Shown here: piece after piece, positions 1 through 35,428 of the stretch
How the letters are laid out: the number at the start of each line of letters is the position of its first letter
How positions within the stretch are numbered: position 1 is the first letter of the stretch
Assembly: GCA_963575745.1 (NCBI GenBank)
Contig: CAUYUJ010000161.1
Location: forward strand, 62,001-117,414
DNA: 55,414 bases
DNA from: Prorocentrum cordatum
Lineage: Eukaryota
Reading direction: 5' to 3'
Notes under the pieces: model-generated
Seen by the model: only the letters and a program-made list of their open reading frames with translations
Told to the model about the DNA's origin: nothing
The model's database searches: none
Translations under genes and position numbers: made by a program

Positions 1-252
1 CGTCCCGTCCAGTGCGCATCTCGGACGATTTCATGTGAAATGCGTCGCGCGTGCGCGCCTACCGCAACAGCGCGGCAGGGCTGCGCGCAAGAGGAAGGTG
101 GGCTGTCACGCTGTGCTGGGTTCCGTACGGATCACGAGGGGGAGGAGGAGGAGGAGGAGGAGGAGGAGGCGGAAGTGGATTTTGCGGAACGAAGTTCTGA
201 AGAAGACAGGCGATGGAGGCGTATTTAGTTGCATGAGACCTCTCATCCCTAG

Positions 253-1264: not shown

Positions 1265-2920
1265 TCTCGGTGGAGCCCCCTACGGGGCCACGAAACGTAC
1301 GAGGGGTGTGCCGAAATGGGTGTGCGGGACGCATGCGGGCACACCCACTGGGGCCTTCGGTGGAGCTCCCTATGGGGCCACGAAACGTGTGATGGGGTGG
1401 TGTGCCGAAATGGGTGTGCGGGACGCATGCGGGCGCGGGCACTGGGGCCTTCGGCGGAGCTCCCTATGGGGCCACGAAACGTGTGAGGGGTGTGCCGAAA
1501 AGGGTGTGGCTGACGCATGCGGGCGCGGGCACTGGGGCCTTCGGTGGAGCTCCCTATGGGCCACGAAACGGGTGAGGGGTGTGCCGAAAGGGGTGTGGGT
1601 GACGCATGCGGGCGCGGGCACTGGGGCCTTCGGTGGAGCTCCCTATGGAGCCACGAAACGTGTGAGGGGTGGGCCGAAATGGGCGTGGCTGACGCATGCG
1701 GGCGCGGGCACTGGGGCCTTCGGTGGAGCTCCCTATGGAGCCACGGAACGCGTGAGGGGTGTGCCGAAATGGGTGTGGGTGACGCATGCGGGCGCGGGCA
1801 CTGGGGCCTTCGGTGGAGCTCCCTATGGGCCACGAAACGTGTGAGGGGTGTGCCGAAATGGGTGTGGGTGACGCATGCGGGCGCGGGCACTGGGGCCTTC
1901 GGCGGAGCTTCTACTATGGGGCCACGAAACGTGTGAGGGGTGTGCCGAATTGTGTGTGGGTGACGCATGCAGGCGGCAGCACTGGGGCCTTCGGCGGAGC
2001 TCCTATGGGGCCACGAAACGTGTGAGGGGTGTGCCGAATTGGATGTGGGTGACGCATGCGGGCGGCAGCACTGGGGCCTTCGGTGGAGTTCCCTATGGAG
2101 CCACGAAACTTGTGAGGGGTGTGCCGAAATGGGTGTGGGTGACGCATGCGGGCGCGGGCACTGGGGCCTTCGGTGGAGCTCCCTATGGAGCCACGAAGCG
2201 TGTGAGGGGTGTGCCGAAATGGGTGTGGGTGACGCATGCGGGCGCGGGCACTGGGGCCTTCGGCGGAGCTCCCTATGGAGCCACGAAACGTGTGAGGGGT
2301 GTGCCAAATGGGTGTGCATGCGGCCGCGGGCATGGGCCTTGGTGGAGCCCCTATGGAGCCACGAAACGTTGAGGGGTGTGCCGAAATGGGTGTGCGTGAC
2401 GATGCGGGCGGCAGCCTGGGGCCTTCGGCGGAAGCCCCTATGGGGGCCACGCAACGTTGGAGGGATGGGTGCGAATGGGTGTGCGGACGTTGCGGGCGCG
2501 GGCACTTCGGTGGAGCTCCCTATGGAGCCACGAAACGTGTGAGGGGTGTGCCGAAATGGGTGTGGGTGACGCATGCGGCGCGGGCACTGGGGCCTTCGGT
2601 GGAGCTCCCTATGGAGCCACGAAACGTGTGAGGGGTGTGCCGAAATGGGTGTGGGTGACGCATGCGGGCGCGGGCACTGGGGCCTTCGGTGGAGCTCCCT
2701 ATGGAGCCACGAAACGTGTGAGGGGTGTGCCGAAATGGGTGTGGGTGACGCATGCGGGCGCGGGCACTGGGGCCTTCGGTGGAGCTCCCTATGGAGCCAC
2801 GAAACGTGTGAGGGGTGTGCCGAATTGGGTGTGCGTGACGCATGCGGGCGCGGGTATTGGGGCCTTCGGTGGAGCTCCTATGGGGCTACGAAACGCTGTA
2901 CTGGGTGGGTGAAACGCAGG
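1265..2920. repeat. 90-bp tandem satellite, ~18 units
   Basis: Unit ggggccacgaaacgtgtgaggggtgtgccgaaatgggtgtgggtgacgcatgcgggcgcgggcactggggccttcggtggagctccctat recurs at 90-bp spacing (e.g. 1623, 1713, 1803). Confidence 0.97.
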
Positions 2921-2928
2921 GAAGAGGG

Positions 2929-3222
<294 letters not shown>

Positions 3223-3335
3223 GCAGGAGGGAGGGGGCAGCGGGAGGAGGAGGAGAAGGAGGGAACGCGGGGCACCGTCTCTTCAAAACGAGGACCCAAC
3301 ACCACAGGATGGTTGGGAAAAATGTTTCTTGAAAA

Positions 3336-3515
3336 TGGAAACGGCAAAAAAACGGCGACCGGAAAGGCAAAAAACGGCTCCAGGATTGGAACCGGAGCCA
3401 GAACCGGTCAAAAAACGGCGACGGAACTTGTCAAAAAACGGCGTCGGAACCGGCAAAAAAACGGCGTCGGAACCGGCAAAAAAACGGCAACACGGAACCG
3501 GTAAAAAAACAGCCC
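3336..3515. repeat. ~23-bp degenerate minisatellite (aaaaaacggcgtcggaaccggc)
   Basis: About 7 recurrences of aaaaaacggc...ggaacc. Confidence 0.85.
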
Positions 3516-4142
3516 GTTTCCAGGGCCCGCTAAGCCCAAGAGGACCCCGAGATCGCCCTCAGGCGGCGCAAGAGACCACCAGGGCGGCCCCAGCGTGCCC
3601 CAGGCGAGGGAGAGAGCACGCACTGACCCTTCGAGCCCTGCGCCCTCCGATGACCCCCGAGGCGACTCGCACAGGAGCTGCAGTGTCGGAGGCCTGGAAA
3701 TTGGCACCAACACCAAGACAGGGGGCTGCCTCCACAGGGGGAAGGCGATCCTAGATTTTCGGTGTTGGTGGTAATAGTTCGGCCACCCTGGGAGCCAGAA
3801 TATTACCACCATCACCGAGATCGGGATCTTCTTCCCTCCGTGGAGTCACACCGCCGACAAGCGGTCCCCCCTGTGACCCAAAAGGCTGCGGAGAAGACAA
3901 GGGGAACAGAGGGGGAAGTGAGACGGATGCAAGCAAGTGCGGAGGGAGGGTGCAGAGAGACTAACTACGCTTCACATTTGTGAATCCGCGTTGGTGTCAA
4001 TCTCTAGGCCTGCGACAGTGCCTGGCGTGGCCTCCGGCCCGTGGCCGGAGGCGCGCTGCGCCCGGCGGGGGTGGAGAGGGCCCCACGCGTGGCAGGCCCT
4101 GTTAACCTCGGGCGGGAGGCCGGCCGTGGCCGTGGCTGATAA

Positions 4143-4513
4143 GTCGGGCCTGTCCCCCTACGGTAGGTTCGTGTCGTGTCGACCGGCGGCGACCCCGCCA
4201 GCGGCGTTCAACTTTGAACGCCGCGGGCGACCCAGAATCGTTCGATGTGGAACGATTTGGACGTTTCGGAAACGGCCGATCGTTCAAGGTTGAACGATCC
4301 CCGCGGTGTCAGAAACCAACGCCGAAGTCGGCACGACACGGACCTGCCGTACGGGGGCATTTCCGACGAAAAATATAAAAGGTACCCCGAAAGTAGTCCA
4401 AAAATGGTCTCGGCACTCTTTTTTTGAGTTTTTGTTCTGACCTTTTCGAGGTTTTTGTTGGGGGTGCTTTTTCTTTTTCGTCGAAAATCCCCGTGTAGGG
4501 GGACACGCCCGAC
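4143..4513. mobile_element. MITE family C (TIR gtcgggcctgtccccctacggggg...ttccgacgaaaaa), with a nested insertion in its left TIR
   Basis: ~40-bp TIRs. Other copies at 21994-22162, 22760-22926, ~31700-31843 (right half) and ~35160-35314. Several copies are followed by TTAA. Confidence 0.8.
4161..4349. mobile_element. Nested Tc1/mariner(Stowaway)-type MITE with TA duplication
   Basis: TA|cggtaggttcgtgtcgtgtcgac...gtcggcacgacacggacctgccg|TA. Removing it restores the family C TIR. Confidence 0.8.
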
Positions 4514-4530
4514 ATGAGCCGTGGCCTTGG

Positions 4531-4695
4531 TGAGGGGGCCCTGGGACATCTAAATAGATAGACACAAGTAACAGGATCCCCCATATTTTCCAATGTTTTC
4601 TGGGTGTTCGCCTTCCCCCCGTTTCCCATATTTTCCCATATCTTCCCGGGGGTCGACGATTCATCGTGTCTGTGTGTGTGTTTGTTTCCTCCTGA
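4531..4695 (-). mobile_element. ~165-bp dispersed element family B (tcaggaggg...acacagacac...tatgggaaaatatggga...tgtgtccctggggccccttca)
   Basis: Homologous copies on + at ~9747-9920, 10152-10314, 15450-15612, 15818-16019, 18205-18360, 22190-22352 and 31190-31361. Confidence 0.85.
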
Positions 4696-4842
4696 CTTGG
4701 ATCTAGATGTGGCGGGTCCTCCTCGGGCACCCGCTCGGGGGCCGCCCCCGAGCGCCGGCGGGGGTGCCATCCCCACGACTGGCGGGGTGGGGTCAACCAG
4801 TGGCGAAGCGTCCTGGCGTGCCTATAGTTGGAGGTTGATAGA

Positions 4843-6641
4843 TTCTACAGGCTTACGCCACATCCGCCGACCCCTTCTGTGACTGTTGCGAGGCCAGGAG
4901 TTTCTGGCCAGCGGCTTCTTGTGTGAGGGTGCGGTGTCGCGCGCGGGTGGTGGCAGATACGTAGGGGGTCCAAATGTTTGCGTGATGCCGGTGGTCTGGG
5001 GCGTGTTTTGCGAGCGCCTTGCGTGCTGTGCACCCGGGTGCGGGGTGTCCTTCTGGGAGGTCGGCCTTTCGACCCTCAACCAAGTGGAGGAGCACCGGAA
5101 GACGAAAGGAGCAAGAGTAGCGTGCAGAAGCTGCGATCAGCGAAGCATCACCGCGAAAAATGTGGCAGATGAGTCGAAACGGGTGAAGAGGCTGTTGACG
5201 TTCGCAGCGCGCACGAAGCAGTTCGCGTAGCAGCAGCACACTAGCGCCTAACAAGATTGTGAGCACGTCGCGAGGAAGAGCAAGGCTGCATGCGCGGAGT
5301 GCATTGCAGTTGGCTTGACGGCTCGCAATGCGGAAGCGTCTGGGGGTCTTTGGGAGGCCTCCTGGGGGCCTCTTGGGGGCTCCTTGGGGCGTCCTGGCGG
5401 CCTCTTGGGGGCCTCTGGCGGCCTCTTGGGGCACTCTTGGGGCCCCCTGGGGCTCGCGGGGGCGGAAAGCTGGATCTTTGAATTTGTGGTTGCCCTCTTG
5501 GGCCCCTCTTGGTGCCGTCTTGGAGCCTTCTTGGGCCGTCTTGGGGACCTCTTGGGCCGTCTTGGGGCCATATTGGGCCGTCGTGGGGCCGTCTTGGGGA
5601 CCTGCTTGGGCCGTCTTGGGGCGGTTTTCGGAGCCTCTTGGGCCGCCCTGGACCGTCGGAAAACCCACGAGGCGAATTTGTAAAAACTATACGCTTCACG
5701 AAGGAAAGGAGCCAATTTTTGCGTCTAGGGACCCTCTTGGGGCGCATCTTGGAGGGCCCTTGGGGGCGTGTTGGGCCAGCTGGAGGCCATCTCGGATGTC
5801 TTCGATCGCTCTTGGACCGTGTGGGACCATGTTGAGCTCTTTGGGAAGCCACTTGGAGCGCTCCTGGAGCGCTCTTGGGGCCGTCTTCGGGGCTCTCTTG
5901 GGCCGTTTTCGGCGCCTCTTGAGCCGTCTTGGCGCCCTCTTGGGCTGTCTTGGGGCCCTCTTGGAGGCTTCTTGGACCGTCTTGGTGCGGTCTTGGGGGC
6001 CTCTTGGGCCGTCCAGGAGCGTCGGAAAGCCCAAAAGGCGAATTTGTGAAAAATGCACGTTTTACGAAGGGAACGGGCCAACTTTTTGCGTCTAGAGGCC
6101 CTCTTGGGGCGCATCTTGGATGCCTCTTGGGGCCTCTTGGGGGCATCTTGGGCCGTCTGGAGGCCGTCTTCGGTGTCTTTGATCGCTCTTGGACCGTCTG
6201 GGGCCATATTGAGCTCTCTTGGAGGCCACTCGGAGCGCTCCTGGAGCGCTCTTGGGGCCGTTTTCGGAGCCTTCTTGGGCCGTCTTGGACGCCTGTTGGC
6301 CCGTCTTGCGTCTAGGGACCCTCTTGGGACGCATCTTGGAGGCCTCTTGGGGCCTCGTGGGGACCTCTTGTGCCGTCTAGGAGGCCTCGTAGCCCGTCTT
6401 TGGGCCACCTTGGGCGTCTTGGAGCGCTCGTTTGGCGTCCCGGGGCCATTTCGAGGCCACCGGAGGAGTCCTTGCAGGATTTTCGGGAGCGGATGACCCC
6501 CCCGGGGGAATCGGGGGAATCGGGGGATTTGCCCGGACCCCCCCCCCCCCCCCCTCCAAATCGACCGGACTGGGTTCCCGGGGGAGGGGTTTGGGGAGGG
6601 GGAAGATCTCACACGCCGATGAACCCCAAGGGGTCGGCGGA
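4843..6641 (-). mobile_element. Helentron/HINE-like element family G, copy 1, with internal CTCTTGGG-type compound minisatellite
   Basis: Inverted 12-mer TCCGCCGACCCC (4863-4874) / GGGGTCGGCGGA (6630-6641). Hairpins at both ends. The 5340-6460 interior consists of 9-11-bp ctcttggg/gtcttggg units in a ~360-bp higher-order repeat. Confidence 0.55.
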
Positions 6642-7322
6642 CCTCCTACCCTGACACGTCGATTAAGGAATTTGCCGTTTTCGGTTCGCGAGAGGGCGTC
6701 AGGGCCGTCATTTTCGCGGGTCCAGGTCCGTCGGTTTCGGCCCCAAGCCGTTTTCACTAAGGGGAGGCTTACTAAAGGGAGGTTTGTCCACCGCCGACAT
6801 AGGCTTGTGGAGGACGATCAATGGAGAGGAAGCATGTTGCCAATAATGTCTTGATGTCTACAGCATGTGTTAAACATGGTTTGACCATGTGAAACACATG
6901 TTGCGAACATGTTTAGGACATGTTTCCGACATCATTAACACATTTTAAATTCAATGATCGGACTGTTAGGGTGTCCATTGTCGTGGCATCTACAACCATA
7001 GGCCTACCAAGCAGTGTTCTACGAACCATTTTTGTTGTTTCCACGAACTGCTCTTGGAACATTTCTGGCCAGAACGGTCTCGTTTTGGCACATCGGGCTC
7101 ATGTTCCAAGGACAGGGACCCAGAGATCCGATGTCGTGATTTTTTCAATACGCGGCCCCCAGAAGTCTCGACCCATTCCCCAGGACCGGTGTTTCATCCT
7201 GAGTCGTTTTTTGACGGTCCCGAGGCCCGGCGGGGGCCCCTAAGGGCAGAAATTTGCGACAAAAACTCCGTCTTGATTTTTTCAATGCGTAGGATCTCTG
7301 GGGAGGGCGGAGGGCTCGCCGC

Positions 7323-7710
7323 GGGGGAAGCGGGCCCTGGCGGGGAAGCGGGTGCCCCCGGGGGTCCTCCGCGCTCGGGCCCTCGGGGCCTCCCAACGGG
7401 CCCCAGAGGCCGTCGCAGAACGGCGCGGAGGCTCCTCCCGGGGGAAGGCCCCCAGGAGGGGAGGAGGAGGAGGAGGAGGAGGAGGAGGAGGAGGAGGAGG
7501 AGGAGGAGGAGGAGGAGGAGGAGGAGGAGGAGGAGGTGGAGGTGGAGGAGGAGGAGGGAGAGGCGGAGGAGGAGATGTGGACCGGGACCGGGAGGCGGGC
7601 GGCGGCCGCGGTCGGCGAGGGCCAGCGGGGCTCAGGGACCCGTTTCCCTCAGGGGAAGGCCCCAGGATTCCAGGATCCAGGACCCGTTTCCCTGAGGACC
7701 CGCTTCCCCC
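7323..7710. mobile_element. Possible MITE with GGGGGAAGCGGG / CCCGCTTCCCCC TIRs enclosing a (GAG)n tract
   Basis: 12-bp inverted termini plus internal repeats of the TIR motif. Confidence 0.45.
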
Positions 7711-7802
7711 ATGCTAAAGAGAAGGGGGAGAAGGAGGGAGGCCGGGTCGCTGGCGTCGTGGTCGAAATGGGGGCAGCAGCGCGCGGAAACCCAAGCGGAG
7801 AG

Positions 7803-7824
7803 CTTGAGCCAAAACGCTTGCGGA
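7803..7824 (-). other. Relict dinoflagellate spliced-leader sequence
   Basis: Minus strand TCCGCAAGCGTTTTGGCTCAAG, 18/22 identical to DCCGTAGCCATTTTGGCTCAAG, with the last 12 nt perfect. Confidence 0.6.
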
Positions 7825-8166
7825 AGGCGAGGGGTGGGGAGGAGGAGGAGGAGGAGGAGGAGGAGGAGGAGGAGGAGGAGGAGGAGGAGGAGGAGGAGGT
7901 CCAATGTAAACCCAAGTGTCATCCACGATGTTGGAGTAACCCACCCACCAAGCTCCCTCTTCATAGGCCCCTACAACGGTTCATTTCCGTTGATGGAACT
8001 GCCTCGTTGAAAGGCACTCGTGTGATAATCCGGGGCGTCTTGACGATTCTGAATCGTGCCAGAACGCCATTCCTAGGACTTCAACACAGAGAATCAGCTT
8101 ACCTGTTGCACCCGCATCATCCGAAATCCTTCCAAAACACCATTTCTGGTACGTTGATGATGGGAA

Positions 8167-8520
8167 TCCGCGAAACTCCTGCAAAGTTTTAAAGACGAAT
8201 GTGCGCCGCGCTATGGCGAGAGCTACATTTTGAAAACCAATCGCCCTAAATCCGTGAAACTCCTGCAGATTGTTTAAAACGAATGTGCGCCGCGCAATGG
8301 CGAGAGCCACATTTTGAAAACCATCCGCCCTCAATCCGTGAAACGCTTGCACATGTTTTAAAACGAATGTGCGCCGCGCAATGGCGAGAGCCACATTTTG
8401 AAAACCATCCGCCCTCAATCCGTGAAACTATTGCAATTGTTTGTTTAAAACGAGCCGCGCAATGGCGAGAGCCACATTTTGAAAACCACCCGCCCTCCAT
8501 ACGTGAAACTGTTGCCAACG
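8167..8520. repeat. ~84-bp tandem repeat, ~4.2 units
   Basis: tccgtgaaac...aaaacgaatgtgcgccgcgcaatggcgagagccacattttgaaaaccatccgccctcaa at ~8167, 8251, 8335 and 8419. Confidence 0.93.
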
Positions 8521-8630
8521 TTTAAGCTTCAGAGCCATGAAGGTGAGGAAGTCTTAGGCGAAACGCCCGGCCCGCCCTACAAACTGGCCTCGGGGTGTGA
8601 CAGGGAGAGGTTATCTATGAGGAAAAGGAA

Positions 8631-9000
8631 TGAATAATGATGATGATGATGATGAGGAGGAGGAGGAGGAGGAGGAAGGAGGGAGGAGGGAGGAGGGAGG
8701 AGGGAGGAGGGAGGAGGGAGGAGGAGGAGGAGGAGGAGGAGAAGGAGGAGGAGGAGGAGGAGGAGGGGAGGAGGAGGGAGGAAGGAGGAGGAGGAGGAGG
8801 AGAGGAGGAGGAGGAGGTGGAGGGGGTGGAGGAGGAGGAGGAGGAGGAGGAGGAGGAGGAGGAGGAGGAGGAGGAGTAAGAGGAAGAGGACGAGGAGGGA
8901 GGAGCAGGGAGGACGAGAATGAGGTGGAGGAGCGAGGACGGGAGAGAGGGAGGAGGAGGGAGGGAGGAGCGAGGATGGGGGAGGGAGGGCGGGTGGGGAG
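8631..9000. repeat. (GAT)n-(GAG)n purine-rich microsatellite
   Basis: Direct reading. Similar (GAG)n/(CCT)n tracts at 7456-7575, 7838-7898, 12930-13070, 16227-16460, 17965-18057, 19225-19610, 20030-20165, 25690-25830, 32045-32200 and 42120-42880. Confidence 0.95.
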
Positions 9001-10443
9001 GCGGTGGAGCGCGGCGGGCCCGACGGCAGGCGCAGCACGTGGGGGAGACCAGGATATCCCGGTTTGCGTTCGCCGTGGTGCCCAGCGCGCGGGCGCTCGT
9101 CGCAGGCCCGGGCTTCCCAGGGGGCGCTGGCGCGCCCAGCTCTGGGGACCACGGCGCCGCCCGTGCTCTGCGGGCCGCGGCGCACCGGTTCGTGCTCGGG
9201 ACGGACTGAGCGGCGGGGCGCCGTCGAGGGTCGGGGGTGTCCACGTGGGGGGGGGACGACTAGGGGCCCAGACCCCCCCCCCTCGCGTCATGACGAGAGC
9301 ACGGCGGGAGCTGTTTTGTTGCCACGTTCGGGCCCTGAGGACCCTCACCTGGCCTCGGGGGCTGTCAGGAAACCTCGCAGGACGAGAAACAAAAACGAGT
9401 CCCAGGTAATGAGGCGAGACCCCTGGAGGCTGGCGTTATGAAAACATCGTGAGGTTGGGGGTCTGGGTGGCTGGATATCATGGCCAGTGCCATGACATTC
9501 GAAGAAGGAAGGGTGGGCATAAGCACATACTTTTGGAGCTTCGCGCGAGTTTCTCGGATCGGTGCTGGGCCCCGGCGCCCGGCGCGCCTGGGGTGGTCCA
9601 GCGCCGATCCAAGAAATCGGCGCGGCCCTCCGAAAGGTCATGTTTATCCAACGCGTTGTCCTTCTGTCGGAGGGGGGTACTGCGTTAGGGGGGTGGAGAT
9701 CATGGCCAGGGCCATGGTAGCTCTCAGAGTTCACGGCCCTCTCTTCTCGGAAGGGAAAAAACACAAAGACGCACTTGATCGTCGATCCCCCGGAGAATAT
9801 GGGAAAATATGGGAAGTGTGGGGGGGGCGAAACGAAAATTATGAATATTTGGATCGATGTGTATATCTATATATATATATATACAAAAGGGAATATTGGG
9901 ATCAGCGCGTTCGTTGGACCCTCGTCGTCGCACACATGCCTCGGGCCAGGCCATTCTCTGCCAGAAGACGGCCCGAGAAGCCCCCAAGACGGCTTCCCGA
10001 AGGCCCCGACACGGCCCCGACATGCGCCTGCGCCCCTCCGGCATGCGTCCGAGAGGTGCCTAAGATGGCCGGGAAGCTGTGCAGTTCTGCCCCCGAGAAG
10101 CCAACGTCGTCCAATTTGACGGGCCTTAGGCAGCCCCATTAGAGACCACACTCAGGAGGGGAAAAACACAGACACAATCAATCGTCGATCCCAAGGAAAA
10201 GTATGGGAAAATATGGGAAGTGGGGGGGGGAAGACGAGAACCCGTAAAATGTTGGGAAATATGGGGAATCATATTACTTGTGTCTATTTGGTTGTGTGTC
10301 CCAGGGTCCCTTCACACACTAATTACCCCAAGATGCGACAAGAGTGTCTCAAGAGGATCCCGGCACGGCGCGAGTCGATGAAATTGCATCTGGCTTCTTG
10401 TAGGTATTCGAGCATTGTAGCATTGTTGCCTTTCGGCCCATAC

Positions 10444-18152: not shown

Positions 18153-18471
18153 GCGGCTCCCAGAGAGAGACAGCCGAGCCGCCGCTCGGCTGGTCGCGCC
18201 CTCTTCAGGAGGGAAAAAAACACACAGACACAATTAATCTTCGATTCCCAGGAAAATATGGGAAAATATGGGAATTGGGGGGGAAGACAAAAACCCAGAA
18301 AATATATATGAAAATATGGGGACTATTTTTATTTGTGTGTATTTATTTGTGTGTCCTAATTTCCCTTTACCTCTGCACGCCTGGGCGGGCAAGTCCACTG
18401 CCCGCCTGCAGGCCCTGCTGCAGGGCGCGGCCGCGCAGCTCGATTAGCATTCCGGCAGGTCAGCAGGGACT

Positions 18472-19228: not shown

Positions 19229-19263
<35 letters not shown>

Positions 19264-19607
19264 TTCGTCCTCCTCTTCCTCCTCCTCTTCCTCCTCCTTC
19301 CTCCTCCTTTTCCTCGTCCTCCTCCTTCTCCTCCTCCTCCTCCTTCTCCTCCTCCTTCTCCCTTTCCTCCTCCTCCTCCTCCCATTCCTTCTCCTCCTCT
19401 TCCTCCGCGTCATCCGCCTCCTCCTCTTTCCAATCCTTTCCCTCTTCCTTCAACTTTTCGCCCGAAGGTTCCGCCGCCGCCTCCTGCTCCTGCTGCTGCT
19501 CCTGCTCCTGCTCCTCCACCTGTTCCTCCTCCTCCTCCTCCTCATCCTCTTTCTTTGAATCCTCCCCCTCCTGATCCTCCTTCTCGTCCTCCTTTTCCTC
19601 CTCCTCC

Positions 19608-19629
19608 TCCGTAGCCTTTTTGGCTCAAG
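19608..19629 (+). other. Dinoflagellate spliced-leader sequence integrated in the genome
   Basis: TCCGTAGCCTTTTTGGCTCAAG is a 21/22 match to DCCGTAGCCATTTTGGCTCAAG. Confidence 0.9.
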
Positions 19630-21099
19630 GTCGAACCATTTGTCGCGGGGGCTCGAGCTTGTGGTCCCGCCGCCGTACGACAACCATCGAGAGAGCGCCC
19701 TACGCTTCGCGCGCGCTCGGCATCCAAAACATCACGTCCAGTAGACCGCATTTGGTTTGTAAGCGGTGCGGTGCCGACAGCTGGATCTATGTCAGTAATA
19801 AGGCCGAGCACTGTCAGTTTTGTGGTTTGGCGTTTCCCTGTCGCGGTCATGGTGATCGCTCCACGGCCAAATTATCAGGCTGATGTACCAGGTGGTCGTG
19901 TCAAAGGTCGTCAAGGAGGAGGCACATCGGGAAGAGGACGTCAAATATTTGTTGAGAAGGGGCAGGGTTGTTGGCACGGCGCCTGCACACAACGCACGTG
20001 ATGACGGCGATGCTGTCGATGCTGCTCCTGACCCTCCTCCTCCTCCTCCTCCTCCTCCTCCCTCCTTCTTCCTCCCCCTTCCTCCCCCTCCTCCTCCTCC
20101 TCCTCCTCCTCCTCCGCCTCCTCTGCCTCCTCCTCCTCCTCCTCCTCCTCCTCCTCCCTCCTCCGCCAGTCAGAGGCAAAGATAGGGTCAGGGGCGGGCG
20201 GCCTAACATTCAATCCCGGGGAGCCTGCTTCTGTGGGCCCTGCTCGGAACGATCTGCAACACATGGAATCTCTCCTGAAGGCCCGCACTAGGTACACTCA
20301 GATATTCGAGTTTCTGTCATCTCATGTTCTTGTTCGGCGTGAGTTTTATAGCGTGCGCGCCACCGTTGAGAACATGAAGCAACGCAAAACTGAACGAATG
20401 TCTGCGGACCAGCCCCGTGCCCAAGTTCAGAGTCACATTGAATCACGGCCAAACTGCAAAGAGCAGAGATGAGTATCCAAATTCTCGGGTCTCCGGTGGA
20501 TGTTACCATTCAGAAGAAGGACGAGATTACTGCGCGCCGAGATCGTCTCCAATAATATTTGGATCATTGGCAATGCCTGAGCCCGCCCCAGGCGACGGTA
20601 TATCTGCCGCGGGGGTTTTGGAAAAGTCTATCGGCGGTGATTCCCCCAGCAGCGTTGGCTTCTCCGCGTGCTGCACAAGCCCGGGCCCAGTTGTCATCCC
20701 TGGCCCCATCCGGGGACTGGCACCTGTAGACCCAACGCACAGCCCACTCGAAGGCGCAGCCTCGCCCCCGACGACGACGTTGGGACGATATCAGCGACGA
20801 AAACGACGCCAGCATCGGTGGTCAAGATGACGACGAGGATGATGATGGTGACGATGCAGTTGGAATGGATTGGGACCTACAGCTCGCATGGCAGCACGGG
20901 GGTCGCGATTTGCCCCCCCGCATGGTGAACACTTCGCGCAGACCGCCGCCCAGTGCTGGCCACAGAGGTGGTAACCCTGTACAGGATCCGCCAGTACCAC
21001 GACCAGATCTACCAAGTAAAGGGGGATGCGGAGGAAGAGATAGTGAGAGCTATGTTTTCCTCTCCCGTCGCCGTTGTCGTCACTGGCGCCATCGGCGAC

Positions 21100-21765
21100 C
21101 TCGGTCTTGGCATATAGCTACCACTAATGTCATTACTTGGCCCCGTGCTCGTGAGTTTCTCAGCTCCACGTCCTACGACGTCTATTTGCTACAAGAGCTG
21201 TTGACAGGTGAGGAAGCTGTAGAGACCGCAATGTCCGATGTCAGCTCTTGGGGTTACCATTCCTTCCTGCGGCCATCTGTCCTGGCCCAGGCGGCAGGAC
21301 AGTCGGCGGGAGTCGGGGTGGTTCCCTCTTGGGCCTACGGCGTGCAACCGCTGCAGCTTGGCATCGAGCAGTTTCCACCCCTGGAGAAGGTAATTTGCAT
21401 CGCAAGACAGACATGGCATTGTACAATTGGACATACTTGTCTTCAGCGTTAATATGTACAGTGGTAAGGGTGATGACGCCCTGGCTAAGACTACTCATCT
21501 GCAGTTGCAACTTGCTGCCGTCCAGCGCGCGGCTTCTACTTCATATATGGTTGGGAGGCTGGCAGATGTCACCGGCGCAGCTCGCAGCATCGGGATGGCC
21601 TGACCTCGCGCAGGGCTGCATAAAACAACTCACGCGGAAGACGCGGACATCTCGCACGAGGACCATTGTTGCATCGTTTATTTTGTTGCTCATCAGTTGT
21701 TAGCGGCCGGCTCGACCTGCGAAGCGCGGCCCAGCGCGGCCATTGCAAAACGTGAGCCCGCTGCA
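21100..21765 (+). pseudogene. APE (exonuclease III-like) endonuclease domain of LINE ORF2, frameshifted
   Basis: IATTNV...DVYLLQE...SAGVGV, then in other frames VFSVNMY, LGGWQMSPAQL and YFVAHQLL. These match the APE motifs xNV, QE, GV, Y, GDxN and DYF. Confidence 0.8.
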
Positions 21766-22476
21766 CTGACGGTGGCGGGGTCCTTGTGAACAAGGCTTGC
21801 GCCTTTGATTCGGCGTGCCCCAGATTTCTTGTGCCATTGGCCAATGGGCGCGCTCCCGAACATCTCGCCGATTGAAATGCCCAACCCGAGCTTCTCGCTG
21901 GTCTCAACGACCTCGACTTTCTACAAGTTGCCGCGCCTCGCTGGGCGGAACTGTCGGCTAAGGATTTCTGACGTCAGATGGATCCAGAATCATGTCGGGC
22001 GCGCCCCCCATACAGGGGGATTTCCGACGGAAAAAATACACCAAACATGCCCCGAGAAGGTCGAACACGATTCAAATAATAGTCCCCACATTATGTTTGG
22101 ATCATGTTTGGGGCACTTGTTATTTTTCGTCGAAAATCCCCTTGTAGGAGGACAGGCCCGACTTAAATCCAGATCTTCATGGCAGATGATCAGGAGGAAA
22201 AGAAACGCACAGACACAATTAATCCTCGATTCCCAAGAAAATATTGGAAAATATGGGAAGTGGGGGGGAAGACAGAAACCCAGAAAATATGGAAAAATAG
22301 AGGGAATCATTTTATTTGTGTGTATTTATTTGTGTGTCCTGGGGCCCCTTCAAATGAGGCCAGCCGCCGTCGACTGCCCATTCTCGTGCTGCCACGAGTC
22401 GCCGAGGCCGCAGTCGGACCACTTTCGCGGGCCGCCCATGGAGGCCCCGTTCTGCGCGATTGCCCTCGGTCTTCTA

Positions 22477-22713
22477 GGCCTCCTAGATGGGGTCGGAGTA
22501 GATGGGGTCGGAGGATCGTGCTGCATTGTTCATGTATCGGCGATGTGTTTCGATGCGGAGCCCGATGTGCTTCACGTCTACGTCGCCACTGCATCGCCGA
22601 CGTCGTCGATGCATCGCCAGTGCATCGCCGATGCATCGTCGATGCATCGCCGATGTATCGCCGATGCGGCGCGATCCACCGACCCCATCTACTCCGACCC
22701 CATCTAGGAGACC
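22477..22713. mobile_element. MITE with ~40-bp TIRs and TCTA duplication; internal gcatcgccgat repeats
   Basis: TCTA|ggcctcctagatggggtcggagtagatggggtcgga...ccgaccccatctactccgaccccatctaggagacc|TCTA. Confidence 0.85.
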
Positions 22714-23299
22714 TCTAGGTCTTGCATTTTCGGGCCAGAGGTTCGAGAGCCAGCGCGAAGTCGGGCGCGTCCCCCTACGGAGATTTTCGACGAAAAATGA
22801 AAAATGTACCAAAACTACCCCGAAATGCCAAAAACATATTCAAAACATAGTTTTCAGCTGATTTTTTGGGAGTATGTTTGGTCTATTGTTTCGTCGAAAA
22901 TCCCCCTGTAGGGGGACAGGCCCGGCTTAAGTCAGCGCTAAGTTCGCGCGCTTGCAGAGCGCGCCGATGTCGCCCCAATCCAGGAGAAGGATCGCGCCCT
23001 AGGGAGCGGGACTGGCGGCGCGAGCAAGTCCGTCGCATTTCTGCCTCATCGGTTGAAGCAGTCAATGCCCTCGCCGGCCAGCTCGACGCAATGGCCGCGG
23101 ATGCCGAAATTGCATCGCCGAAGGTTCGCCATCAGCAGCAGTGCGATTGGGCGCTCGCCGCAACGTCACAGGGTTCGGCAGCCGCTTACAAGTGCATCCG
23201 CGGGAGGCCGCCTGGGCAACTCTTCGAGGTGAAACCGGAGATGGATTCAAAAGCCCCCATCCCCGCAGCGCCATCTTCATTGCCGTGAAGAGTCCAGGC

Positions 23300-24610
23300 A
23301 CGGTGTCTGGGGCGTCGGCAGGGCAAGCGGCCCCCGGACTTCCCCCAGTTGACGCCCGAGCAGCTGGGGTAGCTTACCCCGCCAATGCCGCGGGGCCAAC
23401 GACGGGTGTCAAAGCGGCGCATGGCGCGCGCAGCAGTGAGTCGTGACCACATTCGCCCCCGGCACCTTGCGCCTCAGCCCGGCCCAGCGCCCTGGGCGCG
23501 CGCGAGGCCATGGCGAGCCGCGTTGCGAGCGGGCTCTGCGCCGCCAGTTCTCGCCCGCGCCGGATTGCCTGCCATCGCCGAGCCTGCACTTGGAGATCGA
23601 CTTGTTGTTGCGTTTTCCACATTTGCTCGCTCTTGCACCAAGTGTTTTCGGTGGTCTTGGGGATCGCAGCGGGCTCGCGAACGCGGATGCCCGCGCCTTT
23701 TCTCGGGGCAGCTCGGAAGTCTTCGATTCAATGCGTCCGGCGGCAGATTGTTTTTCATTGGGTTTGCTCATGCACGGGGGCGGGTATATTGCAGTTTCTT
23801 ATTGAAGGCCTTCGAGGATGTATTGCGTCGCATTCTATTGGAAAAGGCTACCAACTTAGCCTTTAACTTGGTTCGGCTGCTTCTCTCGATAGCGCCGCGT
23901 CGCGGGCCAGGGCTGGCGCCGACGCGCGGCGTGCCAGGGCGCGCGGCACAGTCAACGCAAGCTATTGTTGCTGGATGTGACTCTGCTGACTTGCTCACGA
24001 GAGCCATGCTGATCCCTGGCGTGGATAAGCTATTTCAGCAACGCCAGCGCGCATTCGCTGGAGTCGCAGCTGATAATGTTCAGCGTAATGTTATTGTCAC
24101 CTTGCGTCGTGAGCTGGAACGCGCCCCCGTGGGTGCCACCGACAGAACTCGGGCGCTCCAGGCTGCTGGAGTACCCGCGTCTCTGAACCCTAACATGTAG
24201 TTCTTCCTTGCCGCGGGCCCTGAGAGGGCAAAGGAGGTCGTGTCCCGCGCGCCAGATCTCACGGGCTTCGATGCCGCGCGCGGCGCGGAATCTGGGCACT
24301 GATTACATTGCGCGGCCATCCTGGGTCGCAGTCCAGCGCGTCAGGAAGCATCTTCTGGAGGGGAGTGCCACGCGCGATAGACGTCTTCCCAACCTTCGCA
24401 CAGCTGGCTGGCGAGCCCAGCCGATGCTGCGACCTGCGCTAGGTTCCACGACGCTGCGTGGCGCCGGCGTCGCGGGCTTGCCCATGCAGCGCGCGCGCGA
24501 GCTGAAGCAGCGCTATCATGCAGCACTCGGCACGCGCGCGCACAGGTGTGCGATTTGGGATCTGATCCCGCACTACGCCCAGCAGTGCCAGCGCGCGCGG
24601 ACGTTCTGAC
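23300..24610 (+). pseudogene. Reverse transcriptase domain of LINE ORF2, degenerate
   Basis: LLKAFEDV (DxxKAFD), QAIVAGC (motif 4), VAADNVQ (decayed YxDD) and ARNLGTDY (motif 7), in the expected order and spacing. Confidence 0.75.
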
Positions 24611-24866
24611 CGTGTGGGCTCCTCGGCGGGATGGAGTCCCGTCGGAATTCTTGTACTCGATGAAAGCCTGCCATGGGCGAGTCGGAACGTCACTGCCGAG
24701 ACACCTTGGCGTGATTTGCGCGGCCCAGCATCTCTAGCTGTTGCAGCCTAGTTGAGATTGGGTGGGTCTGTAGCAATTCCCACTACCTGGCTCGCAGTTC
24801 CTGGGGCGCCTGTTGACAATGCGCCGTTGGCACCTCGCGACCTGTCTGCACTTGTCGCTCGGGAAG

Positions 24867-25074
24867 CGTGCGTGCGTGTGCGTGCGTGTGCGTGCGTTTG
24901 CGTGCGTGTGCATACGTGTGCGTGCGCGTGCGTGCGTGCGTGCGTGTGCGTGCGTGTGCGTGCGTGTGCGTGCGTGTGCGTGCGTGTGCGTGCGTGTGCG
25001 TGCGCGTGCGTGTGCGTGCGTGTGCGTGCGTGTGCGTGAGTGTGCGTGCGTATGCGTATGTGTGTGTGTGTGTC

Positions 25075-25110
<36 letters not shown>

Positions 25111-25291
25111 CGTGCGTGTGTGCCTGCGCGCGCGCGTGCGTGCGTGCGTTGGTGCGTTGGTTCGTGTGTGTGTGGGTGTGTGCGTGCGTGCGTGCGTGCG
25201 TGTGTGTGTGTGTTTGTGTGTGTGCGCGTGTGCGTGCGTGCGTGCGCGTGCGTGTGTTTGTGAGTGCGCGTCCGTGTGTGTGTGTGTGGTG

Positions 25292-25332
<41 letters not shown>

Positions 25333-25484
25333 TTGCGTGCTTGTGTGTTGCGAATGTGTTTTTGTATGTTGTGTGTTGCATTTTTTTCTCGCCCGACATG
25401 ACCTACGCCGCGCCGCCACGCGCGTGGCAACGATGCCAAACATTGTGTCCGTGTTTGTGTACGTGCTTGTGTGTGTGTGTGTGT
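24867..25484. repeat. (GCGT)n/(GT)n microsatellite
   Basis: Direct reading. Confidence 0.97.
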
Positions 25485-31533: not shown

Positions 31534-32459
31534 GCCCCGAGGGGGGCACGGCGGGGATCGAGGGCCCCCAGACGGTGTGGTGCCCACGCCGTGCGGTGAG
31601 TCGGTGGGGGTTCGGGGTCACCGCACGGCTCTGGGGCTCGAGTCCCTCTCCGAGGACGTCTCGGGCGATGGGGGCCTGCGGGGTGCCAAGACCGTGCGGT
31701 GAGGTCTGGGGGGGGAATTCAAAAATAGTCGGAAAATAGTCTGGGCACTGTTTTTTGAACATTTTGGGGGCATCTTTTCTGAGCATTTTTTGAGTATTTT
31801 CCATTCTTCGTCCAAAAACCCCCTGTAGGGGGACAGGCCCGACCTAAGTCTTGGGGGACGTCGAGGTCACCGCACGGTCTGTCACCGCACCGTTTTGGGA
31901 CTCCAAAGGGGAGGCGGGGGCGCAGTCGAGGAGGCTCTGGGGCAGGGCGCGTCACCGTCGAGGCGACGCCGGGTTCGCCGTCGGATGGGCCGGGTCAGAC
32001 GCTTGGCCCTGGGCCGCTCGGCTGCTCCCGATCTCGCGGGGAGGGCGAGGGGAGAGGGGGGGGAGGAGGGGGAGGAGGGGGAGGAGGAGGGACGAGGAGG
32101 GACGTGGAGGAGAAGCGACGAGGAGGGGGAGGGAGGAGTAGGACGGGAGGGAGGAAGAGGAGGTGGAGGAGGAGGAGGAGGAGGAGGAGGAGGAGGAAGA
32201 ACAAGCATACGTCATGACGTGGGGGGGAGGACGAGCGGCAGTAGCAGGAGAACGATCAGGGGTGCGAAAGAGAGGAGGAGCAGCATGAGTGAGAGCAGCA
32301 GCAGGGAAAAAGGGGGGGCGCGGCGCCCGAAGTGAGCAATGTCTCCCTGGGTGCGGATCTGCATAGATTCCACATTCCACGACCTCTGCCGCAATGATTA
32401 TGCTTCGAGCGATCCCCACCGAAACCTTCGACGTTTGATTCCGAAGGTGCGCGCGCATT

Positions 32460-34979: not shown

Positions 34980-35428
34980 TCCGAGTAGGCGCCCCCGCCG
35001 CTCCGATGTGTCAGCCCTCGGGCCTCCCCCGGCCTCTCCTGTGGGCCGGGGGGCCATCCCGAATATTGTCGTCCCTCGGTGGGCCGAGCTCCCTGGCCTG
35101 CCCTCTACGGGGGCCACGGGGCCGGCGAAACTATGTGTTCAATCGTCCCCTTAATTTTGAGCGGGCCTGTCCCTCGAAAGGAGGAAAATTCCAAAATAGT
35201 CCATAAGAATAATCTGGGAACGAATGTTTGATTTTTGTTTGGCCATTCGGGTCGCATGTTCTGCGTATTTCTAATTTTTCGTCGAAGATCCCCCTGTAGG
35301 GGGACACGCCCGACTTAACCTTAGTTTTAAGGAACCATTCCCCGCCATTAAACCATCTGCGCCCAGACGACAGGACGGAGGAGGGCACGGATGGCGGAAT
35401 GCGCCTGGGAAGTCCACCAATCGCGAAG

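Follow-up and report, generated by a model that had tools for sequence, protein, structure and literature searches.

Introduction

The elements SLACS, CZAR, CRE, and NeSL insert inside spliced leader (SL) RNA genes, split the SL exon, and use a restriction-like endonuclease. For dinoflagellates, trans-splicing is the sole route of SL addition according to passages of two papers (PMC7245778, PMC5585692), and passages of three others describe SL relics in DNA as known tags of retroposed genes (PMC3229502, citing Slamovits & Keeling 2008; PMC12014239; PMC6050394). Here, a stretch of 55,414 nucleotides from Prorocentrum cordatum (GenBank assembly GCA_963575745.1, contig CAUYUJ010000161.1, positions 62,001 to 117,414 of the forward strand), referred to below as the window, was analyzed for a long interspersed nuclear element (LINE) that appears to begin with the dinoflagellate SL.

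The machinery that makes SL-relic gene copies was called unknown in the relevant passage of Song et al. (2017, PMC5585692). The same passage gives the Gene Ontology term 'RNA-dependent DNA replication' as enriched among relic-bearing genes and reads this as activity of the machinery rather than as a sign of SL-capped retrotransposons. A 2018 review favors a long terminal repeat (LTR) element as the retroposition machinery (PMC6050394), and a Symbiodinium preprint holds that retroposition and retrotransposition look independent (10.1101/783902), both as worded in excerpts of these sources. A full-text literature search, with subscription journals outside its coverage, turned up no paper that explicitly describes a LINE beginning with the SL.

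Results

A Spliced Leader at the Edge of a Microsatellite

We estimate a probability of about 0.75 that positions 19608–24868 (+ strand) represent a single copy of a non-LTR retrotransposon (LINE), dead and partly deleted, that has the SL as its first bases. Positions 19608–19629 (+) read tCCGTAGCCtTTTTGGCTCAAG and agree with the dinoflagellate SL DCCGTAGCCATTTTGGCTCAAG at 21 of 22 bases, the sole mismatch being T instead of A at SL position 10 (window 19617). With up to three mismatches allowed, no other SL match appeared on the two strands of the 55.4-kb window, which has ~60% G+C, and none of 100 dinucleotide-preserving shuffles of the window yielded any SL match. A chance match was rejected on these two grounds.

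An imperfect (TCC)n array, detected by Tandem Repeats Finder at 19229–19610, abuts the SL directly. The first three SL bases (TCC) are in phase with this array, so that 19 SL bases are unambiguous. Both the 21/22 match and its place at the microsatellite edge, where the array ends and the SL begins, had been claimed by an earlier inspection of the letters alone (the sequence-only reading) and were upheld. The SL is in sense with the LINE downstream, which is matched on the + strand by the clade profile described below, and is directly followed by GT.

Endonuclease and Reverse Transcriptase Domains Downstream of the SL

The window's own open reading frames (ORFs) gave neither an apurinic/apyrimidinic endonuclease (APE) nor a reverse transcriptase (RT) in Pfam or PDB sequence searches, even at E = 10, and a homologous-protein search with the APE ORF returned nothing. 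The two domains were recognized through relatives. The RT query (P0001) was the frame 22935–24200 with three stops read through as X, and phmmer against 1.84 billion representative proteins gave 22 matches, the best being P0002 (E = 3e-33). Fourteen of the 22 matches were scanned with Pfam; RVT_1 was present in 11 of these 14 and RNase_H additionally in one. By tblastn, P0012 (1482 aa, APE + RT) aligned with the window at 21114–21353 (aa 28–107) and at 22995–24095 (aa 386–766), and the alignment of P0003 reached aa 513 of 970 at window 24868.

A clade profile of seven sequences and 1450 positions (alignment A6) matched the window on the + strand only, and in order. The matches comprised profile positions 11–81 at 21093–21323 (E = 1.3e-5, APE), 348–433 at 22998–23252 (E = 7e-7), 479–712 at 23397–24092 (E = 1.2e-21, RT), 771–868 at 24268–24564 (E = 5e-10), and 897–933 at 24632–24745 (E = 0.006). 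When compared with PDB, the profile found the RT of R2 (E = 8.9e-15), human L1 ORF2p (8.7e-10), and exonuclease III (1.9e-5). Furthermore, a three-sequence APE model aligned as four colinear pieces in three frames across 21087–21780, namely 21087–21347 (E = 3.1e-6), 21400–21555, 21551–21613, and 21634–21780.

Because APE and RT are colinear on one strand and the profile finds L1, R2, and ExoIII, the element is an APE-type non-LTR retrotransposon. Its non-LTR RT is the strong profile match at 23397–24092; an ExoIII-like endonuclease precedes the RT on the N-terminal side and shares its strand, and in relatives this domain passes Pfam as Exo_endo_phos. The APE and RT named by the sequence-only reading were thus confirmed by way of relatives, as colinear + strand pieces at 21087–21780 and 22974–24868. 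The clade of the element occurs in dinoflagellate-type DNA.

The close RT relatives come from transcriptome-derived protein sets, and therefore the family is transcribed somewhere. The sequences closest to the RT pieces of the window, P0005 and P0010 (50–57% identity), bear the EukProt source label 'Pyramimonas sp. CCMP1952', a prasinophyte transcriptome; this label may stem from dinoflagellate-type sequences within the data set. Another RT relative is labeled Karenia brevis.

The copy is strongly decayed, with at least five frameshifts, two in-frame stops, and ~0.95 kb of nested repeats (21985–22935). Profile positions 934–1450, which hold RNase H and the C-terminal zinc finger/Cys-rich region, are missing, as is the 3′ end, the element being cut off by a (GCGT)n array, and neither tblastn nor the clade profile gave any clade match past 24877 in the window. 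The copy is truncated at 24866 and shows neither a 3′ tail nor a target-site duplication.

An Intact Relative Starting with the SL and a Shared Junction

Loci for comparison came from two kinds of samples. The SL-first samples held the exact SL 21-mer and consisted of 119 stretches of IMG/VR contigs and 23 stretches of contigs from prokaryote metagenome-assembled genomes (MAGs), the latter contigs being evidently eukaryotic or viral contaminants. For the LINE-first sample, metagenome contigs were scanned with a three-sequence RT alignment, which gave six loci, and only one of them (L120) was informative at the 5′ end.

L152 is an intact relative, with an element of ~8.9 kb on a full contig of 9096 bp. 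Since microsatellites of the same type lie on both sides, L152 is one delimited insertion whose first bases are the SL. At this locus, the inserted DNA physically begins with the SL. The L152 SL is directly followed by TC, which is neither a GT nor a GC donor. The L152 ORF1 is homologous to the L120 ORF1 (E = 1e-5), and therefore the SL-proximal ORF belongs to the LINE. L120 has an intact ORF1 (352–1329) and an intact ORF2 ending at 6874; its ORF1 is composed of an N-terminal RanBP2-like zinc finger, a Pro-rich linker, a long coiled-coil-like region, and an acidic tail.

In both the window and L152, the SL is followed by TCGNAC, with one extra G between in the window. The ungapped 30 bases after the SL are identical at 18 positions between the two, and L152 ranked first for the window among 155 distinct SL-downstream sequences (runner-up, 15/30). 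Only 22 of 11,882 null pairs, taken from different loci, reached 18/30. The local alignment of the two leaders was weak, as 88 of 5000 shuffles equaled its score and one unrelated locus scored higher.

The pattern CCGTAG-N15-16-TCGNAC, which was derived from the window and L152, was scanned over both strands of 2,363,830 bases of partly overlapping loci. Its occurrences were limited to three separate places (window 19609, L152 117, and L120 243), and all three are upstream of the ORF1 of a clade member, in sense. At the matching place, L120 has kept CCGTAG-N16-TCGCAC, and the 15 intervening bases have diverged from the SL. The junction of the SL with TCGNAC (SL/TCGNAC) is common to very divergent clade members. 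We consider it probable that this LINE clade as such carries an SL-derived 5′ leader. The features of the window copy and of L152 are collected in Table 1.

Table 1. Positions of the features of the window element and of its intact relative L152.
Locus	Feature	Position	Strand	Remarks
Window	(TCC)n array, 5′ flank	19229..19610		imperfect; on the + strand a ~380-nt polypyrimidine tract leading into the SL; Tandem Repeats Finder
Window	Dinoflagellate SL, probable 5′ terminus of the element	19608..19629	+	21/22, T for A at position 10
Window	5′ leader/untranslated region (UTR)	19630..19757	+	TCGAAC at 19631–19636 corresponds to the conserved leader start of the clade; SL-like stretch at 19636–19657
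Window	CxxC-x14-CxxC zinc-ribbon motif	19758..19823	+	frame 19575–19883; position of the N-terminal RanBP2-type zinc finger in L120/L152 ORF1
Window	(CCT)n array within the ORF1-like region	20033..20164	+	poly-proline in one frame; counterpart of the Pro/Gly-rich linker in L120 and L152
Window	Rest of the ORF1-like region and inter-ORF region	20170..21086	+	several frames; assigned by position and architecture only
Window	APE (ExoIII-like) endonuclease domain	21087..21780	+	split over three reading frames; APE model, P0012 aa 28–107, clade profile
Window	Nested later insertions	21985..22935		MITE-like copies (MITE, miniature inverted-repeat transposable element), 165-bp repeat, palindrome
Window	Pre-RT region, RT, and following region	22974..24868	+	up to profile position 933/1450; two stops, at least two frameshifts
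Window	(GCGT)n/(GT)n array, element breakpoint	24866..25345		RNase H, C-terminal zinc finger, 3′ UTR, and tail absent
L152	(AGAGAGAC)n	1-116		5′ microsatellite, (GA)n
L152	SL core	117-137		21/21
L152	Leader			93 nt after the SL; ATG at 231
L152	ORF1			RanBP2 zinc finger, Pfam E 1.4e-7, exceeds the curated cut-off
L152	ORF2, single open frame	1358-8965		Exo_endo_phos 5e-9, RVT_1 5.4e-11, RNase_H 1.3e-5
L152	3′ end			short 3′ UTR, A6 at 9000–9005, (AG)n at 9005–9074

The ORF1-like Region and the Leader of the Window Copy

The sequence-only reading had placed an ORF1 with a CxxC..CxxC motif between the SL and the APE. The motif was found, and the layout is that of L120 and L152; homology at the sequence level was not found. 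The Pfam matches of the zinc-ribbon motif in its frame (19575–19883) were weak (E 0.016–0.03), and this frame has no ATG. Further downstream, 20170–21086 contains a 100-aa open frame (20170–20472), an acidic run at ~20790–20860, and an Arg-rich run directly before the APE.

Upstream of the APE, a motif R[IL]GEAxxPGP is conserved in L120 (~1750–1790), L122 (~990–1030), and L152 (~4840–4880). In L122 it reads GEAENPGP, which resembles 2A-like NPGP ribosome-skipping peptides, and such peptides are reported for some non-LTR elements. The window has only a doubtful remnant as counterpart, RGGNPVQDP at ~20962–20990.

Within the leader, an SL-like stretch CCATTTG..GGCTCGAG was observed at 19636–19657. 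It fits the truncated relic CCATTTTGGCTCAAG only given a 6-nt spacer and a 7-nt insertion, and this gapped pattern, which was set after viewing the sequence, is expected ~4.5e-4 times per 40 nt. The Smith-Waterman score of the stretch was 15.5, below the null 95th percentile of 16, and the stretch overlaps the part of the leader that can be aligned with L152. Its identity as an older SL relic is ambiguous.

Evaluation of the SL as the 5′ End of the LINE

Several results weigh against a single LINE copy that begins with the SL. With the 3′ end gone, the window copy offers neither a tail nor a target-site duplication, and GT comes directly after the SL, as it does in SL RNA genes. The ORF1-like region (19630–21086) has no detectable homologue: word-based protein searches with 20170–20472 and 19632–19883 were empty, BLASTP of the region against the L120 ORF1 gave E = 0.63, a model of the L120 and L152 ORF1 sequences does not pick it out, and its zinc-finger frame lacks the ATG. 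Among the six LINE-first loci, none had an SL-like 21-mer at up to four mismatches, and L120, the sole 5′-informative one, carries no canonical SL but 9 of 21 matching bases at the homologous place, with CCGTAG kept. Starting from the SL, a LINE was found in 1 of 23 MAG loci (L141, a part of the L152 contig, with a sense-orientation APE match downstream), and this LINE clade was present at none of the 119 viral SL loci. Only two SL-bearing copies are known, the window and L152, and the window RT and the L152 ORF2 are linked via intermediates only (direct BLASTP, E = 0.53).

Further searches for related loci added one sequence. The L141 ORFs had no tblastn match in the window, a search of viral and metagenome contigs with P0012 found no related locus, and neither did a search of viral and genome contigs with alignment A3. 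The MAG G001 contains no second copy of the element. Five further MAGs gave one match (L155), a contig of 7111 bp (G004:C78) that is one open frame of 2369 codons over its whole length, with an RT of the same clade and the 5′ end absent. L155 and the SL-bearing contig L130 were binned in the same bacterial MAG.

Among the alternative explanations, the one that survives best, although we regard it as unlikely, is a fossil SL. The SL would have been acquired once by the ancestor of the clade and then inherited as element DNA, the present copies would not be trans-spliced there, and transcription would run from an upstream or internal start. The same junction in divergent members is what inherited sequence predicts, and L120, whose ORFs are intact, has a diverged SL segment of CCGTAG plus 15 bases with three matching and no AG before TCGCAC. 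However, the SL is 21/21 in L152 and 20/21 in the window next to leaders of ~60% identity, where neutral drift as in L120 would be expected. Selection on an encoded SL could produce the same picture, so that this explanation keeps some probability.

An improbable alternative is that two insertions entered one (TCC)n tract, a short SL-tagged retrocopy at 19608–20032, made from a host mRNA that encodes a small zinc-ribbon protein, and an unrelated LINE that starts behind the (CCT)n array, at ~20165. The (TCC)n/(CCT)n flanks on both sides of 19608–20032 would agree with this, but CCT arrays are frequent at the locus (four in 8 kb) and no A-run lies ahead of 20033. The region 19630–21086 has no sequence homology to any LINE ORF1, whereas its succession of zinc finger, Pro-rich linker, and further ORF1 is the order found in the L120 and L152 ORF1. 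A microsatellite directly before the SL is common, as it was found at 4 of 12 evaluable SL sites that are neither viral nor SL genes (the window being counted apart), but the bases after the window SL are closest to the leader of the LINE L152 (rank 1 of 155) and SL/TCGNAC is specific to LINE 5′ ends. The leader likeness together with the LINE-specific junction pattern makes a separate retrogene unlikely. The claim of the sequence-only reading that the SL is the LINE's own 5′ end, and not that of an unrelated retrogene, is therefore borne out by the layout of L152, the rank of its leader, and the junction at three LINE 5′ ends.

Even less probable is an origin of the SL from unspliced SL RNA or from an SL RNA gene or pseudogene, either because the RT switched to SL RNA as its template when cDNA synthesis was ending, or by a LINE landing in or beside an SL gene, as in SLACS, CZAR, and NeSL. 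Template switching is known in mammals from U6-L1 chimeras. Such a switch, itself very improbable here, would expect the intron of the host SL RNA gene to begin with GTCGAACCATTTG / GTCGAACC. The GT after the window SL is the donor dinucleotide of SL RNA genes, which are defined in a passage of PMC6616646 by an SL followed by a GT or GC donor, but in L152 the same leader start follows an SL with TC. The second SL-like stretch recalls the 'tandem SL' genes of the same passage (PMC6616646), whereas four SL RNA gene contigs read SL + GTAC with a U-run ~30 nt later, and the window is without both. Moreover, a microsatellite instead of an SL gene array borders the element upstream, the SL is whole and unsplit, the endonuclease is of the APE type, no Rfam family was matched, and folding gave z = 0.01. 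SL RNA genes also have a U-rich site in the intron and usually lie in tandem. Of the features of an SL RNA gene, the window therefore has the GT, and no GTAC, no U-run, no second SL, and no Rfam match were found in it.

An element inserted into an SL gene (SLACS/NeSL type) was rejected, as the complete SL stands at the 5′ end of the LINE itself, next to a microsatellite, and the endonuclease is APE.

Other Repeats of the Window and Other DNA-Encoded SL Sites

The repeats nested in the LINE include two palindromic MITE-like copies of ~175 bp (21994–22169 and 22758–22933), and the same family is found elsewhere in the window at 4355–4517, 31720–31851, and 35191–35318. A ~165-bp repeat at 22190–22355 has five further copies in the window, at 18205, 10152, 31217, 4531–4695, and 15450. 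Positions 22476–22714 form a 240-bp perfect-type palindrome of 11-bp units. A Pfam scan of 130 long ORFs from the whole window gave nothing credible, and no host gene was recognized around the element, which the sequence-only reading had placed in sense within an intron of a putative TPM gene.

Microsatellites 5′ of the SL were observed in L126 (1–38), L129 (1–32), L141/L152 (1–116), and L143 (1–34), in addition to the window (19229–19610). The repeats that abut the SL are of the types (GT/GCGT)n, (CAT)n, (GA)n, (ACAG)n, and (TCC)n. From these flanks, a preference for insertion into microsatellites is suggested for SL-tagged retrocopies, whether of a LINE or of a host gene. The (GTGCGTGT)n array of L126 is of the same kind as the array at window 24866–25345.

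The contigs L131/L148, L132/L133, L139, and L147, which were binned in bacterial MAGs, apparently carry genuine dinoflagellate SL RNA genes. In these contigs, the SL is followed by GTAC[AC]... and, ~30 nt downstream, by a U-run of the CCTTTTT type; L132 contains two copies 870 bp apart. In L134 (5980–6045), a lone SL 21-mer is situated between two copies of the 19-nt sequence ttttgcttgcaggcgtgag, resembling a target duplication around an SL-only insertion.

The 21-mer with the T variant of the window was also met in long, apparently genuine bacterial contigs, at L135 2011 (−), L146 6001, and L140 6001 (−), and the surroundings of the 21-mer are homologous between L135 and L146. A collection of 596 Gb should contain about one 21-mer match by chance, and therefore an SL match alone is no proof of dinoflagellate origin in very large searches.

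The IMG/VR stretches (L001–L119), mostly MAGs of giant viruses, contain 135 distinct SL sites (e.g., L024 5001–5121, L011, and L106). All but one (134/135) are canonical, and L100 has the T variant of the window. Nearly all of them directly follow a recurrent, strongly AT-rich promoter-like motif (e.g., ...tttaaatataaatttta/CCGTAGCC, with the slash at the junction) and precede unrelated 5′ UTRs, and some form 50-nt tandem units. From this position after a promoter-like motif, many viral genes appear to carry the host SL in their DNA. A literature search at the level of listings showed no obvious paper on DNA-encoded SLs in viral genes.

Discussion

The layout of the window copy and of L152 can be accounted for by the following steps. 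The template RNA would have received the SL by trans-splicing, as other dinoflagellate mRNAs do, and this SL-capped RNA would have been reverse-transcribed to its very end and then integrated into a microsatellite. We infer that SL-capped, trans-spliced template RNA was the source of the 5′ end of the element. The SL is near-canonical (21/21 in L152, 20/21 in the window), whereas the adjoining leaders are only ~60% identical. A near-canonical SL beside diverged leaders suggests that, in active lineages, trans-splicing renews the SL or selection maintains it, and the diverged segment of L120 shows that simple inheritance with drift probably also occurs.

Furthermore, the terminal AG of the SL could serve as a splice acceptor, and copies would then be cut out of read-through transcripts and need no promoter of their own. 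Such a role of the AG is plausible but hypothetical. It would fit the conserved SL/TCGNAC junction, the finding that neither SL-bearing copy (0/2) has a 15-nt relic abutting the SL, and the ~380-nt polypyrimidine tract directly upstream in the window. The non-canonical SL segment of L120 counts against it, since the leader would be merely inherited at least there. Thus, as regards the overall interpretation given by the sequence-only reading, the SL as the LINE 5′ end has held, and promoter-free spread by way of the SL-AG acceptor keeps its conditional standing.

A wider proposal is tentative and, on balance, doubtful. The whole clade may have adopted the host SL as a heritable leader whose AG, directly ahead of the conserved TCGNAC, acts as an acceptor and makes a promoter dispensable, since every read-through transcript would be cleaved and capped precisely at the first base of the element. 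The clade may also be the engine of mass retroposition, its machinery inserting SL-tagged copies of host genes into microsatellites.

Gene copies with SL relics abound in dinoflagellate genomes. LINEs that start with the SL, end in an A-run, and lie in microsatellites would mean that target-primed machinery there copies SL-capped RNA from end to end. The clade therefore offers the retroposition machinery a concrete candidate, which can be searched for in assemblies and Iso-Seq data with the profile (alignment A6) and the SL/TCGNAC signature. Retrogene counts that are based on SL relics will take in retrotransposons. The relic-bearing genes for 'RNA-dependent DNA replication' in the cited passage of Song et al. 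(2017, PMC5585692) may include such LINEs.

When compared to known systems, the window element resembles the DinoSL-relic retrogenes, as described in the passages cited above, in that a DNA-encoded SL marks the 5′ end of a unit copied from SL-capped RNA; in the window, the encoded SL lies at the 5′ end of the unit and in sense, as in DinoSL retrocopies. It differs from them in that the copied RNA would be the retrotransposon's own and in that divergent elements have SL/TCGNAC in common. Typical recycled genes, for example L138, carry a truncated 15-nt relic next to the SL, which neither of the two SL-bearing copies does.

The domain order is similar to that of L1 (8sxt, 8c8j), with an N-terminal ExoIII-like endonuclease, an RT, and an upstream ORF1 with a coiled-coil-like region, and as in L1-type elements there is a short A-tail (L152) and dead copies are frequent. 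The nearest solved RT to the clade is that of R2 (8gh6). In contrast to L1, the clade has an RNase H, a C-terminal Cys-rich region, and a RanBP2-type zinc finger at the N-terminus of ORF1; it is flanked by microsatellites, and its 5′ end is the host SL instead of a promoter-bearing UTR.

Retrotransposon DNA adjoins SL sequence in SLACS, CZAR, CRE, and NeSL as well. The trypanosomatid L1Tc/ingi elements, according to the abstracts of two papers (PMC1874656, PMC8190864), are likewise LINEs in a trans-splicing host, with a short, conserved 5′-terminal leader, the 77-nt Pr77, shared across divergent elements. However, Pr77 is described in these abstracts as an internal promoter that gives unspliced transcripts (PMC1874656, PMC8190864), whereas the leader of the clade described here is the SL.

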